DNA from: Flavobacteriales bacterium
GTDB taxonomy: Bacteria > Bacteroidota > Bacteroidia > NS11-12g > UBA955
Assembly (NCBI GenBank): GCA_947463095.1
Contig: CANHRE010000001.1
Coordinates: 10,719 to 74,718, forward strand
DNA length: 64,000 bases
Reading direction: 5' to 3'
This document shows, piece by piece, positions 42,314-50,264 of the stretch. Both the position numbers and the translations under genes were made by a program. Positions within the stretch are counted from its first letter, which is position 1; each line of letters starts with the position of its first letter. Below the pieces are notes generated by a model. The model was not told the DNA's origin, ran no database searches, and saw only the letters and a program-made list of their open reading frames with translations.

Positions 42314-42768
42314 TACAGCCCTTTTCTCCTCCGGATTTCAGCCCCCAAAACCCCGATTTCCGGGAAGAACTCGAACACATTTTAAAGGGGCAATACTTCA
42401 TGAAGCATATCGGATTCCAGTTGGAACATGTAGAAAACGGCAAGGCTGAGGGCTATATCGTACTAGGTGAGCAACATTTGCAACAACATGGTTATCTGCA
42501 CGGTGGCGTTAGCGCCACCGTATGCGACTTGGTTATGGGCTTTGCCGCCTGGTCCTTGATACCCAAAGGCTACGGTGTGGTTACCGCAAACCTGAACATC
42601 GACTACCACTATCCCGGGTTAGGCCGCAAGTTATTTGGCCGCGGCAGGGTGGTTAAAACGGGCAATATGCTGCACTTCTGCGAAGCGGAATTATGGCTTG
42701 ATGAAGGTCCGGTGGTAGTGCGCGCCAGCTCCATCATGAGCACCGTTGTCAAACCCCTAAACCCCTAA
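42310..42768 (+). CDS. PaaI-family hotdog-fold thioesterase
   Basis: 152 aa. The motif LHGGVSATVCDLVMGFAAW is typical of PaaI/4HBT thioesterases. Confidence 0.7.
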   Translation: MIQPFSPPDFSPQNPDFREELEHILKGQYFMKHIGFQLEHVENGKAEGYIVLGEQHLQQHGYLHGGVSATVCDLVMGFAAWSLIPKGYGVVTANLNIDYHYPGLGRKLFGRGRVVKTGNMLHFCEAELWLDEGPVVVRASSIMSTVVKPLNP

Positions 42769-44132
42769 GCACCGTTTTGATACTTCTTTAAAAGCAGCAT
42801 CACCTCGCGGCTGCCTGATGCCTTGGCCCATTGCCGAAGCTTTTTATGTTCTTCTCTGTTCAGTCCATTCCAGGCGCCTCGTTCCAACAAGCATTTGCAC
42901 AAGTCTAAATCTGCTTTGCGCACCGCCTCGAACAATGGTGTTTCCCCATTTTTATCGCGTATGTTCACCACAGCGCCAGAGGCCAGCAACTGCTTCACAA
43001 TGGCTGCAGCGCCCAGGATAACAGCATGGTGCAGGGCCGTTAATCCTTCCGCATCCTGGCTGTTTAGGTTTACGCTGCTGCAGCGAAGCAAGTGGTTCAG
43101 CGCTGGCCGGTTCCGCTTCAGCACCAACAGGTGAATTAATGGCAAACCCTGTCCATCGCGCTGATTCAGGTTAAAGCATGTGGTGCTGCATGCCATGGTG
43201 ATAATCGTATCCAGCAGCAGCTGATTGTTGGATTTCGCGGCCAGAAACAATAACTCAGAATCGGTGCCACACAGCAAATCCAAATAGGGTACATACGCGG
43301 CCATGTAGGACCATTGACCGGTGGTAAGGGCATTTTTAAGGTTTGCCTCCGTAAGTATACGCCGCGCCTCAACGGGCAATACCGAAAGCCGTTGAACAGC
43401 ATTCCCGAACAGCCTTAGATCAATATCTGAAGTGTCAACAAATCCGATATGTGGACCGGGAATTAATATTCCACCAACAACACCCTGTTCATCCAGCACC
43501 GCACTTCCAACTGCCGCCTGCGGAAACTGTTCGGCCAGGAACAGTGATTTGGTTCCTTCATCAGCCAAAACCGATAAATCCTGTCGGGTTCCGTCATCCA
43601 TGCAGCAACTCAGAAGAAGATGGAAAGGCGAAGCGCCGAAATTCAGTTTAAACGCCGGCATCCCTGACGGCCTGTCTATTTGAAGCAGCGCATAATTCTC
43701 GTCCATTCCACGAACACCTGTCCAAGCTTCAGCCCTTACGGAAGCAATCCGGAATACCGAAGAATCCGGAATTGGGGACCCCAGCGCGGCTGCCGGAATC
43801 CATACAAGCGCCTGGCCGCTTGTCAGCGCGCTCCGGTGCAGGCTGCTGCCTGCAGTAAGCAGCAAATCAGGAGCAACAAGAAAGGCTGTTCCCAAGGGTT
43901 TGTAGGGATGCTGTTTGGCTGAGGAATATCCTTCATTCCAACGCCATACTCCGAATGCAGGCGGCTTAAATGCCTCAGCAGGATATAGATATCCTGTGGT
44001 ACCGGTGCAGCCAGCAACAGACCTCTTTGGGGAAGGCCAGCCTGAACCGATAGGCGTTGCTTGTTGCGCCAGGCCTGAAGATAAAATCAGACATGCACAA
44101 AGCAGGCAGGAATACCGAAGATACCATTGCAT
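42765..44132 (-). CDS. secreted trypsin-like peptidase-fold domain fused to C-terminal ankyrin repeats
   Basis: The start was chosen at MQWYLRYSCLLCACLILSSGLAQQ, giving a signal peptide. The N-terminal half has chymotrypsin-fold-like GTAFLVAPDLLLTAGSSLH and a VGSAV motif. The C-terminal half has clear ANK repeats (DAEGLTALHHAVILGAAAIVKQLLASGAVVNIRDKNGETPLFEAV...). Confidence 0.55.
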   Translation of the reverse strand: MQWYLRYSCLLCACLILSSGLAQQATPIGSGWPSPKRSVAGCTGTTGYLYPAEAFKPPAFGVWRWNEGYSSAKQHPYKPLGTAFLVAPDLLLTAGSSLHRSALTSGQALVWIPAAALGSPIPDSSVFRIASVRAEAWTGVRGMDENYALLQIDRPSGMPAFKLNFGASPFHLLLSCCMDDGTRQDLSVLADEGTKSLFLAEQFPQAAVGSAVLDEQGVVGGILIPGPHIGFVDTSDIDLRLFGNAVQRLSVLPVEARRILTEANLKNALTTGQWSYMAAYVPYLDLLCGTDSELLFLAAKSNNQLLLDTIITMACSTTCFNLNQRDGQGLPLIHLLVLKRNRPALNHLLRCSSVNLNSQDAEGLTALHHAVILGAAAIVKQLLASGAVVNIRDKNGETPLFEAVRKADLDLCKCLLERGAWNGLNREEHKKLRQWAKASGSREVMLLLKKYQNGA

Positions 44133-44161
44133 ATCGCCACCGGGCACTTGCCCTGAATTTC

Positions 44162-45925
44162 TCAATCCAATAGCACCTGGAGCAAAGGTTGTACCGCTTT
44201 ATCGGCGTTTGCTTCCAGTGTCCATGCCGCCCTACTGACCTTTTCTGGGCGAAGCATGATGGTGCGCATGAGCCCAGCGCGGTTCACAAGCACTTCGGTT
44301 GGCTGATCATTTGTAAGCAGTCGGTTTACCTCTTCTATTGAATTTCCAACGCGGCGCCCGTCAATTGCAACCAGCTCATCCTGCACATTCAGTCCACCTT
44401 TCCAGGCTGGTAAATCGCGTTCAACATATTTCACCATAAGTCTGCCGTTTTCAAAAGCCGTACTGATGCCCAAGGTAGTTTCCGTTTTACCCGGATTCTG
44501 CGCTTTGATTCCCGCTTTGGCGAGTATTCCAGCATAATCGGGTATTTCGGTGCTTTCAACCAGGCCTCGGATTTCAGCGCCAAGCCCAACACCCCCTATG
44601 GCATCAATGGTTTCGTAAAATTCATCATTGCTGAAACCGCGCTCCGGCCTATTGAGGTATTGCTGCCAGAGTGACTTCATCACATCGTCGAGGTTGCGAC
44701 TCCCCTTAGTTCTGGATACAATGTTAGCGTCCAGAAGAAATGCCAGCACCTGCCCTTTCCCATAGTAACTGATGGTCGTATTGCGGCTATTTTCGTTCGG
44801 GCGGTATTCACGGATCCAGGCATCATGGCTGCTTTCTGCCAGCGACTGATAAAACCTTCCGGGACGCTGTTCCAAATCGTTGATGGCAGAGGCCATTTTC
44901 TCCAGATAGGCTTCTCGGGTATAGAATCCGGCTCGACGCAGGATGAGTTCATCGTAATAGCTGGTAATTCCTTCGGCCACCCACAGCATATCGGTATGAT
45001 TTTCCTTGCTGTAGTCGAAGGGCCCCAGAGGTTCAGGCCGGATGCGCTTCACATTCCATAGGTGCAGGTATTCGTGTCCGCATAACCCTAAAAACTGTTT
45101 GTATCGGGAGGGATTATTCCATTGCCAGCGAGGCATCATTACCGTGCAGGAATTGGCGTGTTCCAGACCACCTCCCCCGGCTTCTGTGTTTAACACAATA
45201 AACAGGTAATTCTTACAGGGATGATGCCCGAAAATGCCCGTGGTGGTATCGCAGATGACAGTAAGGTCGCGCACGAAAGTACCCATGTCCTGATTGCCGG
45301 ACCCCACTACGGCCACCGTATGGGGAACACCCTGCACCTTAAAATCAACGGTTTCATAATTTCCGGCGATGAGCGGAGCATCTGCTAAATCATCGTAATG
45401 TTCAAATGAGAATATGCCGGGCTTGAGTTCCGGTAATGCCACATTCATCTGCTTCCAGGCTGCGGGCAAGTGTACTTCGAGTATTCCCGGCAGATGTTTC
45501 ATTTGTTCTACCAGCATAAACACGGAAGTTTGGTGCAGAAATGCCATATCCGCATCAATAAAAGATGTGCGCACCGACCATTCAAATGCATACACCTTAT
45601 AGCGCACAGAGAGTGATTTCAGTCCTTTCACAGGAAACTGCCAGGTGTTCTTGTCCGTTCTTTGCGGTGTTAGCGGCTTCCCATCGGCTTCAGCCTGCAC
45701 CTGCTCCACACTTTTGGCGAACTCACGCAACAGGTAGCTGCCCGGAGTCCATGATGGCATGCGCAGGTCCAGCACCTGCTCCTTGAAACCGCTAAGCTCC
45801 ATACTTACTTCGGCATAATGCGTATGGGGTTCAGGGAAGGAAACACGATATTTTATTTGAGGCGTGGCAAAGTGCTCCATGATGGTCATGCTTGTAATGA
45901 ACAGCGTCAGTAAGGTGCGGCGCAT
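44162..45925 (-). CDS. M61-family glycyl aminopeptidase with C-terminal PDZ domain
   Basis: 587 aa with a signal peptide. The zinc motif is HEYLHLWN. The C-terminal PDZ-like block is LVAIDGRRVGNSIEEVNRLL. It overlaps the downstream gene by 4 nt. Confidence 0.75.
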   Translation of the reverse strand: MRRTLLTLFITSMTIMEHFATPQIKYRVSFPEPHTHYAEVSMELSGFKEQVLDLRMPSWTPGSYLLREFAKSVEQVQAEADGKPLTPQRTDKNTWQFPVKGLKSLSVRYKVYAFEWSVRTSFIDADMAFLHQTSVFMLVEQMKHLPGILEVHLPAAWKQMNVALPELKPGIFSFEHYDDLADAPLIAGNYETVDFKVQGVPHTVAVVGSGNQDMGTFVRDLTVICDTTTGIFGHHPCKNYLFIVLNTEAGGGGLEHANSCTVMMPRWQWNNPSRYKQFLGLCGHEYLHLWNVKRIRPEPLGPFDYSKENHTDMLWVAEGITSYYDELILRRAGFYTREAYLEKMASAINDLEQRPGRFYQSLAESSHDAWIREYRPNENSRNTTISYYGKGQVLAFLLDANIVSRTKGSRNLDDVMKSLWQQYLNRPERGFSNDEFYETIDAIGGVGLGAEIRGLVESTEIPDYAGILAKAGIKAQNPGKTETTLGISTAFENGRLMVKYVERDLPAWKGGLNVQDELVAIDGRRVGNSIEEVNRLLTNDQPTEVLVNRAGLMRTIMLRPEKVSRAAWTLEANADKAVQPLLQVLLD

Positions 45926-45965
45926 GCGTGCAAAATTAAGTAGCTTGCCGGCAATTCAACGGCTC

Positions 45966-46331
45966 ATGAATTTCAGATTGATTGCCTGTGTCCTGATATG
46001 CTTCGCGACTTCCTGCAGTTCGGATAACAACCCACTGCTCAAGCAATGTGAGCTGGAGCTCGACTCCCTGGAAACTGTATTGGCTCAGAACCCCGGCTTT
46101 GCTGCTTCGAACACCAACAGCTTTATGGTATTGCGCGAGCGGATTCACGGCCGGCTGGATGCGCTGAGTAAAGACCAAACCCTAAGTGCTTCAGCGTTGG
46201 AGCAGCGTGATTTACTGGCCATCCGAAGCAGCGTGTTGTTCACCGCGGCCATGGAACAGGCGCTGGAACTGACCCGAAAACAATCAGACAGCCTGAACAA
46301 GCTTCGCAACAGTGCTACATCAGGCAACTGA
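45966..46331 (+). CDS. hypothetical small lipoprotein
   Basis: The start was chosen at MNFRLIACVLICFATSCSS, which ends in a lipobox. 121 aa, predicted helical. Confidence 0.4.
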   Translation: MNFRLIACVLICFATSCSSDNNPLLKQCELELDSLETVLAQNPGFAASNTNSFMVLRERIHGRLDALSKDQTLSASALEQRDLLAIRSSVLFTAAMEQALELTRKQSDSLNKLRNSATSGN

Positions 46332-46349: not shown

Positions 46350-46670
46350 TCAGTCGCCGTACTCCAGCTCCAGCTTTGCGCTTTGCAGTTCGGACCGGGC
46401 GTGTTGATCGCCTAGCCTGGCAGCTGCGGCAATCCCCTGTTCATAAACTGCCATAGCCTGATCCTTTACCCCATCCTTCTCCATCAATTTCCCCAGATGG
46501 TAATAGGTAGCCACATAATCGGGATGTTGTTCCAGCAACCATTCCAGCAGGCGCCTGGCTTCAGTGGTATTGCCTGCGGAAAGATGTTCCTGCGCCAGTG
46601 CATAGTTCAGGAATGGATCCTCGGGTGATTCCTTAAGGAAGCCCAGCAGTTGGATCATGCGCGGATTCAT
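46350..46670 (-). CDS. tetratricopeptide-repeat protein
   Basis: 106 aa. The TPR-like A/Y/L periodicity is visible in LNYALAQEHLSAGNTTEARRLLEWLLEQHPDYVATYYHLGKL. Confidence 0.5.
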   Translation of the reverse strand: MNPRMIQLLGFLKESPEDPFLNYALAQEHLSAGNTTEARRLLEWLLEQHPDYVATYYHLGKLMEKDGVKDQAMAVYEQGIAAAARLGDQHARSELQSAKLELEYGD

Positions 46671-47136
46671 AAGGCAAAACTAAGGGCTTTCCCCGCATGC
46701 CGAAGCGCCTCACCCGAAACAGCATCCATGTGAGCAACAGAATTAATACCATTGCAGTAATGAACAGTTTCTTATATCGTTCCAGTGTGGATTCCTGTTG
46801 ATGTGCCTGTGTTTGTAGTGCGGCTATAGTGCTTTGATGTTGTCGGTCTTTTTCCACGCCTTCCGTATGATGCCTCAGACACAAGGAATCCACCGCGCGC
46901 TTCAGGCTGTCAACCCGGCGATAGGGTGTGGAATCCAACACAAACCAACAGGTGGGCATGGTAATTCCGCTGAACACCGAAGGCGGCAAGGGACAAGGCG
47001 ATGGAAAGTACGGTGGCGAACTGTTTAATACCTGAAACTTCCCCAGCGTGTCTGGTACAACTTCCGCCACCTGTATTTGGCCATTCATGCCTGCGGCGAA
47101 CAGCATCAACATCAGCATCAGCAACAAGTGCTTCAT
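46633..47136 (-). CDS. hypothetical bitopic membrane protein
   Basis: 167 aa. It has an N-terminal signal, a Cys/Pro-rich region and a C-terminal TM helix followed by an RVRRFGMRGK tail. It overlaps its neighbours at both ends. Confidence 0.4.
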   Translation of the reverse strand: MKHLLLMLMLMLFAAGMNGQIQVAEVVPDTLGKFQVLNSSPPYFPSPCPLPPSVFSGITMPTCWFVLDSTPYRRVDSLKRAVDSLCLRHHTEGVEKDRQHQSTIAALQTQAHQQESTLERYKKLFITAMVLILLLTWMLFRVRRFGMRGKPLVLPYESAHDPTAGLP

Positions 47137-48215
47137 TTTCCTGTTTTGTAGTAATTGATGTGAAGTTTGCTGCTTCCTGATTTCAACATGGTACCACTTT
47201 GCTGAATCCTTTGCTCCTGTTGTTTTTCTTCGTGCAACAGTTCATCCAGAAACGCCAGTACTGTGGAAGCAGTGACGCTCACTACGGCGCCGGAAGTAAT
47301 GGCCTCCACGGCAGCAGATTTCAGCAGGTTTGCCGATTGCTGACGGAACAGCTTATTATTGGCAAATAAGTCGCAGGAGATAATACTGTCGCCGGTAACA
47401 GCCACAAAGCCTATATAGCTTGTATCTTCAGCCATCAACTGGTTAAAATGTTGCAAGTAGGCCGGCAGGTCTTTATTTATTTTATCTGATTGGGCAATGG
47501 CGGTATAAGTACCGGTTCCGCTGCCAGTGCCGGCTTCGCGGTTTTTCACGGCTACCTTGCTCCATACCTCTCCCTGATTCTTTTCCACTACGGCGGCCTT
47601 GCGCACTGAAGGAGAAGTCACCCCGAAGGTATTGTTAAAGGTGTATCCGCTGCCGTTGGGTGTCCACCGTCCGCGCTCCACACAAAACACCGGAACCTGA
47701 ACAGGCCCCGAGTTGGGCAGCAGCAACATATCCTTGGCAACCACCCGATCCTGTTTCCCTCCAGTAACGACCTCTCCTGCCAGTACAAGCACGGTATCCT
47801 TGCCTTTGTTCTCGAATACCAGCGTGTTCACCGTTCCACCCTGAAGTTCGCTCACCACCACGGCACCTTTAGTGAGGGCATCTTTAAAACTGGTATAGTT
47901 CCCAAGTCCCCTGTGCGCCTTTACAAATTCAGGTTCCGATGATATCATGTACAATCTGAGGTTCCCAAACGTAAACTTCTGTTCTTCTGCGCTCAACTCC
48001 TGTTTGATTTTAGTACCCTGATCGCCAAAAGCCCAGGCATAGTTTGCATTCGTGGATCCGTTTGCCTGATTGCTGATGCGGTATACAGTATCGGCAGAGG
48101 AAATCTTGTTCTTGAAAAGCTTCAGATCTTCCTTGTTATACTGAGCCTTTGCGCTGCCAGCGGCCATAATGGCACCCAGAAGAAGGAATCTTGACATGTT
48201 GGTGGAATGGTTCAT
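47133..48215 (-). CDS. hypothetical secreted protein
   Basis: 360 aa with a signal peptide (MSRFLLLGAIMAAGSAKAQ). I recognise no catalytic motifs. It is the first gene of a three-gene operon divergent from the LytS/LytTR pair. Confidence 0.45.
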   Translation of the reverse strand: MNHSTNMSRFLLLGAIMAAGSAKAQYNKEDLKLFKNKISSADTVYRISNQANGSTNANYAWAFGDQGTKIKQELSAEEQKFTFGNLRLYMISSEPEFVKAHRGLGNYTSFKDALTKGAVVVSELQGGTVNTLVFENKGKDTVLVLAGEVVTGGKQDRVVAKDMLLLPNSGPVQVPVFCVERGRWTPNGSGYTFNNTFGVTSPSVRKAAVVEKNQGEVWSKVAVKNREAGTGSGTGTYTAIAQSDKINKDLPAYLQHFNQLMAEDTSYIGFVAVTGDSIISCDLFANNKLFRQQSANLLKSAAVEAITSGAVVSVTASTVLAFLDELLHEEKQQEQRIQQSGTMLKSGSSKLHINYYKTGK

Positions 48216-48392
48216 TTTTTCAGAAATATTTGCTCAAAACTGACGGTTCTTTTCCTGGCCTTTTGAACCAATGAGCCAAACAGGCTTTTGAATGAGTCAA
48301 TGTGCCGGATTGGCTGACCAAATACCGAAAGGAAGGTTAGTTTGGTAGGCTATTTTATCATTTAGGTTCAATACACTGATTAGATTTGTGCA

Positions 48393-50264
48393 TTGCTGCG
48401 CTGTAAAATCCTGCTGATGCTTGCCCTTGTGGGTTGTTGCCTGCGTTTAGCGGGCCAGAATAATCCTGTTCCGCGCGGTGCCGGCGAATTGTTACATGAT
48501 GCTGGAACTTATGAAAACACCCAGCCGGGAAAGAGCATGGAGCTGGCCGCAGAAGCGCTTGAACTGGCCTTAAAGGGTAAAGATCAACAGCATATTGCCG
48601 GATGTTACCTGCTGCTTGGCCGATTGCACCTTACCAATGGCAATAAGGAGCGCGCTGCTGAATTACTGGAAAAGGCATCGGAGGGCTATGGGACGCTTCA
48701 AAATGCTGCAGCCAAGGCCGAGGCCGACCGGCTGCTGGCGCTGGCTCTGGAACGTTCCGGCAAATTGGACAAAGCGGCAGAGGTTCAGAAAAACTACATG
48801 AACTCTTCAGCCATCAGCAAAAAGGATAAAATCAGGGCCAGTGGCAAGAATGCGGAATACATGTACCGCAAGGGGCTGAAAAGCGAAGCAATAAAAGAAT
48901 TGGAGCAGAATCTTCCAGAGGTGCAGCGCGACACGGTGGTGAAGCTGGAACTGATGAACCAGCTGCAGGGAATTTATGGACAAACGGGCGACACGTTGGG
49001 AACCATCAGGATGGCTCAGGAAAATATCGAATTCCTGGCCGTCAATAAATCTGCAGATGCCGCCAGCTTTACCTGGAAATTCGGTGAGGCGCTGCTGAGC
49101 AACGGGAGTGTGAGCACCAGCCTGAACATCAACGAGAAACTGCTCACCGGAGCCCTTAATAATGAAAACTATCTGGTAGCCCGTCAGGCTTACCTGAACC
49201 TGGGATTCACCTATGCGCGCAGCAATGATTATCCGCAGGCCATGCGCATGTTCACGGCAGGATACCAAACCGCGGTGCAGCATCAGGATGCTCTTGGTGA
49301 ACAGGAAGCGCTGCTGCGCATAGCAGAAACAGAGGAACATACCGGGAATTACCCGGCTGCACTCAACGCCTACCAGCGCTATACCATGCTGAAAGATTCC
49401 TTCCGGCATTTGGATGTTCTCGCCGAAGTGCGCAAACTGGGGTTGAACGAGCAATTTGCCCGGCAAGAACAGCGCATAAAAACACTGGAAACCGATCAGA
49501 TTAAACGCGACTGGGAACTGCAAAAACAAAAGCAGGCCATCATCATCCTTGGCGCAGCTGTGCTGCTGTTCCTGTTGCTGCTGTTCCTGTTGTTCAGAGC
49601 CCTGAAAGCCAAACAGCAAGCCAACCTTAGCAATCGACTACAATCGCTGCGCAACCAGATGAACCCGCACTTCATCTTCAACTCGTTAAACTCCGTAAAC
49701 CATTACATCAGCCTGCATCAGGAAAGAGAGGCAAACCGTTACCTGAGTAGCTTCAGCACCCTGATGCGTAGTGTGCTCAGCAATTCGGGAAAGGATTTTA
49801 TCAGCCTGCGTGAAGAATTGGAAATGCTGCGCATTTACACGGACCTGGAACAAGCGCGATTCGCCGACAAATTCGACATACGCTGGGATATGGACGAAGC
49901 CCTTCCCCTGGATGAACTACAGGTGCCTCCGCTGCTGCTGCAGCCCTATGTGGAAAATGCAGTATGGCATGGCCTCAGATATCGGGAAAACCGAGGACTG
50001 TTAAGCATTAAGGTATTCATCCAGGACAATCAACTTTGTTGTTTGATCATAGACGATGGCATCGGCAGGAAACGAAGCAGGGAACTGAAAACCGAAAACC
50101 AAAAGCGCAGCACCGGTACCGGATTGAAGAACACGGAAGAACGTATTGTCATTCTGAACAAGTTGTATAAAACAGGAGTTCGGGTGATGATTGATGATTT
50201 AAACGAGGAAGGTGGCACCTTGGTGCGCATCCTTATTCCATTGAAAAAGGTGGAACCCATATGA
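48393..50264 (+). CDS. sensor histidine kinase (LytS/YehU His_kinase family) with an N-terminal extracytoplasmic TPR domain
   Basis: The order is signal peptide, TPR repeats, one TM helix (AIIILGAAVLLFLLLLFLLF), a His_kinase motif LRNQMNPHFIFNSLNSVNHYI, then HATPase_c. Confidence 0.75.
   Translation: MLRCKILLMLALVGCCLRLAGQNNPVPRGAGELLHDAGTYENTQPGKSMELAAEALELALKGKDQQHIAGCYLLLGRLHLTNGNKERAAELLEKASEGYGTLQNAAAKAEADRLLALALERSGKLDKAAEVQKNYMNSSAISKKDKIRASGKNAEYMYRKGLKSEAIKELEQNLPEVQRDTVVKLELMNQLQGIYGQTGDTLGTIRMAQENIEFLAVNKSADAASFTWKFGEALLSNGSVSTSLNINEKLLTGALNNENYLVARQAYLNLGFTYARSNDYPQAMRMFTAGYQTAVQHQDALGEQEALLRIAETEEHTGNYPAALNAYQRYTMLKDSFRHLDVLAEVRKLGLNEQFARQEQRIKTLETDQIKRDWELQKQKQAIIILGAAVLLFLLLLFLLFRALKAKQQANLSNRLQSLRNQMNPHFIFNSLNSVNHYISLHQEREANRYLSSFSTLMRSVLSNSGKDFISLREELEMLRIYTDLEQARFADKFDIRWDMDEALPLDELQVPPLLLQPYVENAVWHGLRYRENRGLLSIKVFIQDNQLCCLIIDDGIGRKRSRELKTENQKRSTGTGLKNTEERIVILNKLYKTGVRVMIDDLNEEGGTLVRILIPLKKVEPI

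Follow-up and report, generated by a model that had tools for sequence, protein, structure and literature searches.

An exported trypsin-fold/ankyrin protein encoded beside an M61-PDZ peptidase in a Flavobacteriales bacterium is, by its sequence, a non-peptidase S1 homologue

The 64,000-nucleotide (nt) stretch of contig CANHRE010000001.1 analysed here (Flavobacteriales bacterium, uncultured and from fresh water, GenBank assembly GCA_947463095.1; the whole stretch is referred to as the window) carries on its minus strand two adjacent open reading frames (ORFs), 42765..44165 and 44162..45925. They encode a protein with an N-terminal trypsin-like (S1) domain followed by ankyrin (ANK) repeats and, upstream of it, an M61 zinc peptidase with a C-terminal PDZ domain (Table 1). 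As judged from its sequence, the S1/ANK protein is a non-peptidase homologue of the S1 family and not a peptidase, because the positions of the catalytic triad are occupied by Ser96, Asn146 and Val208. We consider it probable that this protein is exported, most likely to the periplasm, that it serves in binding or as an adaptor and not in catalysis, and that it derives from an active S1-ANK protein of a gene cluster linked to C14 (caspase-like) peptidases.

Direct comparisons identify the S1 domain poorly. Its Pfam Trypsin_2 match is below threshold (E = 0.16, 13 bits against a cut-off of 27.6), an NCBIfam scan of the domain gave nothing better, a phmmer search of the PDB with the S1/ANK protein matched only the ANK part, and a word-indexed homologue search returned six relatives only, all of them ANK fusions. 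An exhaustive hidden Markov model (HMM) search with the N-terminal alignment of the clade (the window protein and its orthologues) against 1.84 billion representative sequences retrieves 38 proteins, in the order of the clade itself, protein P0009 (E = 5.9e-13) and then about 30 others, the remote matches ranging from 5.9e-13 to 1e-3. All non-clade matches that were tested are bona fide Trypsin_2/Trypsin proteins according to Pfam and nothing else was found; the clade profile thus connects the domain to S1 by sequence. A first AlphaFold2 (AF2) run with 6 sequences gave a predicted local distance difference test score (pLDDT) below 50 for the N-terminal domain, which was resolved by adding the remote S1 relatives to the alignment. 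The domain is predicted to be the double β-barrel of the chymotrypsin fold, in accordance with the initial annotation, made from the letters of the window without database searches.

The same annotation had called the catalytic motif degenerate, and this is borne out: the motif around the nucleophile position is AAVGSAV in the window protein against GNSGSAV in the relatives, and all three triad positions are substituted. In an alignment of 159 fetched proteins and the window protein, the triad columns read His, Asp and Ser in all 151 non-clade proteins. No clade member has this triad; the combinations in the clade are SNV, NNA, NNT, NNI, SNS and MNS, and none of its His residues is invariant. 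The cysteines of the region differ as well. The conserved disulfide cysteines of the TAGHC...C region of the active relatives are lost in the clade, and the clade has gained a Cys-Cys pair at amino acids (aa) 176-177 (43596-43604), of which Cys177 is invariant, in place of GHP in the active relatives.

The N-terminus of the S1/ANK protein, MQWYLRYSCLLCACLILSSGLA followed by QQ, has the n-h-c pattern of a signal peptide with a hydrophobic maximum of 2.49 (by inspection), and the Ala22-Gln23 junction is invariant in the clade (8 orthologues). This junction agrees with the Q-rule described for substrates of signal peptidase I in Bacteroidetes (PMC5837995). Export through the signal peptide, which had been proposed from the window alone, is plausible. 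A lipoprotein reading of the signal peptide was rejected: Cys 9, 12 and 14 lie without a lipobox and are missing in the orthologues. The C-terminus is the ANK cap, and no type IX secretion system (T9SS) C-terminal domain (Por_Secre_tail or TIGR04183) is matched at E <= 1 in Pfam or NCBIfam. With a Sec signal and no such domain, the protein most likely resides in the periplasm. The ANK module itself is matched by Pfam Ank_2 (3.5e-26), with Ank_4, Ank, Ank_5 and Ank_3 also over their cut-offs, and its sequence matches in the PDB are ankyrins and DARPins (to 2e-45). In the first AF2 model the helix pairs start at aa 294, 332, 366 and 399, with a period of 33-38 residues and pLDDT above 90. The model thus gives four repeats plus a cap, a count that the initial annotation had left to be determined.

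Active proteins of the same build are common in Bacteroidota. The Trypsin_2-ANK family yields 3951 matches at E <= 1e-5, and the best 120 of these are all Trypsin_2 plus ANK proteins of 470-583 aa that include cultured Salinimicrobium and Gaetbulibacter; the earlier remark on the rarity of ankyrin repeats among bacteria does not hold for a family of this size. These fusions, found for example in Salinimicrobium soli and Gaetbulibacter aestuarii, are uncharacterised and stand in databases as 'V8-like Glu-specific endopeptidase', 'ankyrin repeat domain-containing protein' or 'trypsin-like peptidase domain-containing protein'. They consist of signal peptide, S1 domain, two-helix linker and ANK repeats and align with the window protein from end to end, but they keep the His/Asp/Ser triad, an IYG.DDR N-terminal motif and a C14 neighbour, all of which the window clade (23-27% identity to them) has lost.

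The genomic context points to descent from such a protein. In the members of the clade (loci L001-L012 and L017) the S1/ANK gene lies directly after the M61 gene and, where the contig reaches, before a convergent block encoding a 4HBT thioesterase, GldB, an outer-membrane protein (OMP) and NAD synthase. Informative for descent are the loci with about 60% M61 identity, which belong to sister lineages. In two of these (L015 and L016) the order is M61, two C14 genes (679 and 686 aa) and two S1-ANK genes (536 and 540 aa), followed by convergent 4HBT-GldB-OMP-NAD synthase-MFS genes as in the window; L013 and L014 have an equal arrangement. The 540-aa protein is P0009, the closest active relative of the window protein, and the window gene occupies the genomic slot of P0009, just before the convergent 4HBT and GldB genes. 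The S1-ANK protein of L014 aligns with aa 82-450 of the window protein, covering both modules and the linker, and has SAGHC, DYA and GNSGG at the triad positions. A search for C14 homologues across the 64-kb window found none. In the simplest history suggested by these sequences, one S1-ANK gene and the two C14 genes would have been deleted in the window lineage, and the triad would have disappeared from the S1-ANK protein that was left.

The association of the active S1-ANK genes with C14 extends beyond the sister lineages. In 7 of 7 independent contexts the S1-ANK gene has one or two C14 genes close by on its own strand; they are immediately upstream in six contexts and removed by a few genes in the other (L019). 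The surroundings often include a gene for a metallo-aminopeptidase (M61, M28 or M24), and sometimes one for a DUF900 protein or a 2231-aa TPR-CHAT protein; nearly all inspected proteins of four such clusters have signal peptides. A full-text literature search found no description of an exported C14/S1-ANK cluster, which is limited evidence of absence. The PADLOC models of anti-phage defence gave no system match and only generic domain-level matches to ANK, caspase and protease models.

Table 1. Features of the S1/ANK and M61 genes in the window, residues at the triad positions and loci of the C14-linked cluster. Positions without a locus prefix are those of the window.
Feature	Position	Strand	Remark
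Exported S1/ANK protein with inactive S1 domain, 455 aa	42765..44132	minus	probable ATG start; stop TAG 42765-42767
Sec/SPI-type signal peptide, aa 1-22	44067..44132	minus	predicted cleavage GLA/QQ, fits Q-rule
Inactive S1 (chymotrypsin-fold) domain, aa 23-250	43383..44066	minus	triad equivalents substituted
His position	43845-43847	minus	TAGHC in relatives; TAGSS, Ser96 in window; S, N or M in clade
Asp position	43695-43697	minus	DYA in relatives; NYA, Asn146 in window; invariant Asn in clade
Ser position	43509-43511	minus	GNSGS in relatives; AAVGS, Val208 in window; V, A, T, I or S in clade
Two-helix linker, about aa 251-290	43263..43382	minus	AF2 helices 254-271 and 274-287; colinear with linker of active S1-ANK
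Ankyrin module, aa 291-455	42768..43262	minus	four repeats and C-terminal capping helix pair
M61 zinc peptidase with C-terminal PDZ	44162..45925	minus	587 aa, upstream gene of the pair
Parts of the M61 protein			probable signal peptide aa 1-21; M61_N aa 25-189; catalytic domain aa 278-393
HEYLH zinc motif of M61, aa 284-288	45062-45076	minus	HEXXH intact
PDZ of the M61 protein, about aa 483-560	44246-44479	minus	Pfam PDZ_6
Alternative TTG start of the S1/ANK gene	44163..44165	minus	gives TTGA overlap (44162-44165) with M61 stop; probably unused
Bacteroidota-type -7 box TAATTTTG	45931..45938	minus	5 nt before M61 ATG; consensus match only
Hyperdivergent tract relative to L001	43600..44800 (about 1.2 kb)	minus	sliding identity 45-80%; flanks 99-100%
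C14/S1-ANK loci	L013-L016, L018-L022; e.g. L015:4025-11623, L018:4312-9545, L021:4402-9560, L022:4776-9662

The upstream gene encodes an ordinary member of its family. Pfam assigns Peptidase_M61_N (1.3e-48), Peptidase_M61 (5e-47) and PDZ_6 (1.4e-7; 31.6 bits, over the cut-off) to the product, and among solved structures 4fgm is the nearest (E = 1.6e-78). With the glycyl aminopeptidase family (solved structures 4fgm, 8j9c and 7xyo), to which it is predicted to belong, the window enzyme shares its M61_N, M61 and PDZ domains and the HEXXH motif, and no unusual feature sets it apart. Its N-terminus, MRRTLLTLFITSMTIMEHFA followed by TP, resembles a signal peptide, and the start of MRRT and a hydrophobic stretch is kept in 8 orthologues. 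The full-text literature search yielded nothing specific on partners of M61-PDZ proteins. Divergent from the M61 gene and 40 nt away lies the gene for a small predicted lipoprotein (121 aa, ...ICFATSC/SS; 45966-46331, plus strand) that matches no Pfam family; L015 has a 23%-identical homologue at the equivalent place, and L020 has there a lipoprotein of equal size that does not align with it.

The two genes are minus-strand neighbours in tight linkage, as the initial annotation had it in proposing a two-gene operon. The 4-nt overlap on which it had based translational coupling arises only if the first in-frame TTG is taken as the start of the S1/ANK gene. The public gene call (P0001, 455 aa, identical over the first 300 aa) begins at ATG 44132, 33 nt downstream of the TTG, which leaves a gap of 29 nt after M61 and a normal signal peptide. 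Orthologues have -1, -1, 14, 14, 18, 21, 22, 23 and 51 nt between the stop of M61 and the start that follows, and neither the TTG start nor the overlap is conserved. The gene likely begins at ATG 44132 and not at the TTG; the linkage to M61 is always tight, and the overlap is no conserved feature. The TTGA is present in the window, and coupling through it would depend on an unlikely start.

Co-transcription of both genes from a promoter upstream of M61 is plausible because the orthologue gaps are so short (-1 to 51 nt); there is no terminator-like site within the M61-S1/ANK gap, and TAATTTTG is the only -7 box on the minus strand for the gene pair, with none between the genes. With 27 occurrences against 41 expected, the TAnnTTTG box shows no enrichment in the window, so that the copy before M61 is no more than a match to the consensus. 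Scans for sigma-70 promoters and intrinsic terminators, which are of limited relevance in Bacteroidota, performed no better than on shuffled sequence. Three such boxes, 45931-45938 (minus), 46675-46682 (minus) and 48381-48388 (plus), lie 4-5 nt before the predicted starts of the M61, TPR and histidine-kinase genes, a closeness that points to transcripts with no leader or a very short one, or to predicted starts that were placed too far upstream. At its other end, the stop of the S1/ANK gene overlaps the end of the convergent plus-strand 4HBT thioesterase gene by 4 nt (42765-42768), leaving no room for a terminator; L005, L006 and L009-L012 have a gap of 12-23 nt instead.

Orthologues of both genes are present in at least 11 other assemblies, where the S1/ANK ORF is intact at 38-80% identity. 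The ratio of non-synonymous to synonymous change (omega), taken from the unsaturated pairs (L009-L012), is 0.23-0.27 for the S1/ANK gene and 0.09-0.11 for M61; the segments after the signal peptide (S1 N-barrel, S1 C-barrel, linker and ANK) range from 0.15 to 0.41. The clade has 78 invariant residues. Among them are GS209-210 and GILIPGP221-227, whose counterparts in the active relatives form the region of the oxyanion loop and substrate strand. The S1/ANK gene is under purifying selection and, as far as sequence can tell, its product is still functional.

Comparison with L001 reveals a tract of high divergence (Table 1) that spans the C-terminal and PDZ part of M61, the intergenic gap and the N-terminal barrel of the inactive S1 domain. 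Synonymous divergence (dS) has reached saturation within the tract and is 0.017 for the ANK part, and omega in the tract is about 0.17. Because dS is saturated, the tract reads as an imported divergent allele and in-situ positive selection is excluded as its cause; assembly chimerism is likewise excluded, since each allele is present in at least two independent assemblies. The tract could be either a chance recombination or a co-inherited interface.

In the mechanism that we favour, the S1/ANK protein would have a non-catalytic role, in binding or as an adaptor. Its vestigial substrate cleft, with the invariant GS...GILIPGP strand, would hold a peptide or a protein tail and the ANK repeats a second partner; the most likely clients would be the neighbouring M61-PDZ peptidase or its substrates. 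There are precedents for each half of the protein. MamO of magnetotactic bacteria is an inactive trypsin-fold protein that activates a partner protease, MamE (PMC4794232). The logic of a trypsin-fold pseudoprotease acting by binding is the same, but MamO is of the HtrA/S1C branch, carries a TauE transporter domain as well as a di-His motif that binds metal, lacks ANK repeats and serves a different process. In UmbA, from the umbrella toxin particles of Streptomyces, the major cleft of the inactive trypsin domain is where the extended N-terminus of UmbB binds (PMC11062931); UmbA differs in having a lectin as its second module and in its secretion, within a toxin particle, from a Gram-positive organism, and, unlike in the Umb system, no UmbB- or UmbC-like genes are present at the window locus. 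For the ANK half, Bd3460 of Bdellovibrio is a periplasmic ANK inhibitor of the neighbouring DD-endopeptidase Bd3459 (PMC4686830) and RARP-1 of Rickettsia is a periplasmic ankyrin protein (10.1101/2022.02.23.481736). Both are Sec-exported ANK proteins that act in their own periplasm, and Bd3460 is encoded beside the peptidase that it binds; both differ from the window protein in being stand-alone ANK proteins with no protease-fold domain, and their homology to it lies only in the repeat.

Several observations weigh against the adaptor model. The physical or functional tie to M61 is seen only as gene adjacency, and this adjacency may be a mere remainder after the intervening genes were deleted. 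Every clade member found has the gene pair, as the initial annotation would have it, yet this conservation says little, since synteny in this narrow clade extends over the entire neighbourhood. Co-transcription is read from spacing only, and export and localisation were judged by eye from the sequence. The S1/ANK gene changes 3-4 times faster than M61 at non-synonymous sites (dN 0.13-0.21 against 0.03-0.06), which fits relaxed constraint as well as it fits changing binding specificity. Clade members end in basic C-termini (KKYQNGA, KKYR), unlike classical hydrophobic PDZ ligands, and a model in which the PDZ domain of M61 binds the C-terminus of the S1/ANK protein is accordingly disfavoured.

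A more far-reaching version of the adaptor model is speculative and, in our estimate, rather unlikely. The pseudoprotease-ANK protein would be a dedicated non-catalytic subunit of M61-PDZ (adaptor, allosteric regulator or inhibitor), the divergent tract would be a co-evolving interface, and the ancestral exported C14/S1-ANK cluster, with or without M61, M28 or M24, would be an undescribed periplasmic proteolytic cascade widespread in Bacteroidota, of which the window holds a stripped-down and rewired version.

Somewhat less likely still is an ankyrin-based inhibitor for self-protection, in which the ANK repeats, with or without the inactive S1 domain, bind a periplasmic peptidase (M61, or a C14 or S1 enzyme encoded elsewhere) and keep it inactive. 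The position of the gene for this exported ANK protein, right next to that of a peptidase, matches the precedent of Bd3460, which inhibits its neighbour Bd3459 (PMC4686830), and an interface under pressure would fit both the fast change and the swapped tract over the M61 C-terminus and S1 N-barrel. The relationship to Bd3460 is, however, only that of a generic ANK repeat, and active members of the family bear the same ANK module on a working protease, which argues that it was not recruited as a stand-alone inhibitor. We also know of no need of M61 aminopeptidases for an immunity protein.

That the gene is a decaying relic, functionless after the loss of the cluster and drifting towards loss itself, is improbable. 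The triad, the C14 partner genes and the paralogue are gone and evolution is 3-4 times faster than in the neighbours, but omega is low overall and in every structured segment (0.15-0.34), at least 11 assemblies with identities down to 38% keep the ORF intact at full length, and the 78 invariant residues and the signal peptide junction are retained.

Two further readings have very little in their favour. For a secreted effector acting on a host or prey, with ANK repeats that mimic eukaryotic proteins, speak weak domain-level matches to Legionella Ank models, and ANK repeats are typical of effectors in intracellular pathogens; but the Legionella/Coxiella Dot/Icm Ank effector models reach at most 47 bits against cut-offs of 450-1400, in the ANK region only, no T9SS domain or other secretion signal beyond Sec is present, the relatives are river and lake metagenome-assembled genomes and free-living marine flavobacteria, and the ancestry lies in a housekeeping-looking exported protease cluster, so that the host-interaction role offered as an option in the initial annotation is unsupported. 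A hydrolase with non-canonical residues (Ser210 of the GS pair with Asp144, Asp191 or Glu192, or Cys177) would draw on the invariance of D144, D191, E192, S196, S210 and C177 in the clade, but is highly improbable with no invariant His, V, A, T, I or S at the nucleophile position and S, N or M at that of the base; we know of no clan PA enzyme that works without His.

Upstream of the pair, a block at 46350-50264 is kept with the locus in relatives. Its products are a TPR protein of 106 aa, a protein of 167 aa that has one hydrophobic segment at the N-terminus and another near the C-terminus, a signal-peptide-bearing member of ARPP-1 (PF20208) and a divergent histidine kinase of the TPR-LytS type.

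Inactive S1 homologues and periplasmic ANK proteins are already known, and active S1-ANK proteins are abundant in databases. Bacterial pseudoproteases are, to our knowledge, few, and in each studied case that we know of (MamO and UmbA) the inactive cleft proved to be reused for binding. The locus described here amounts to a natural experiment, with active and inactive versions in one genomic slot across sister lineages and a loss of catalysis that coincides with the loss of the caspase-like neighbour genes. For annotation, the window gene is to be labelled a non-peptidase S1 homologue and not a protease or a host effector. The exported cluster of caspase-like and trypsin-ankyrin proteins, often accompanied by a metallo-aminopeptidase, is conserved and apparently unstudied, and is probably a more valuable lead than the pseudoenzyme itself.

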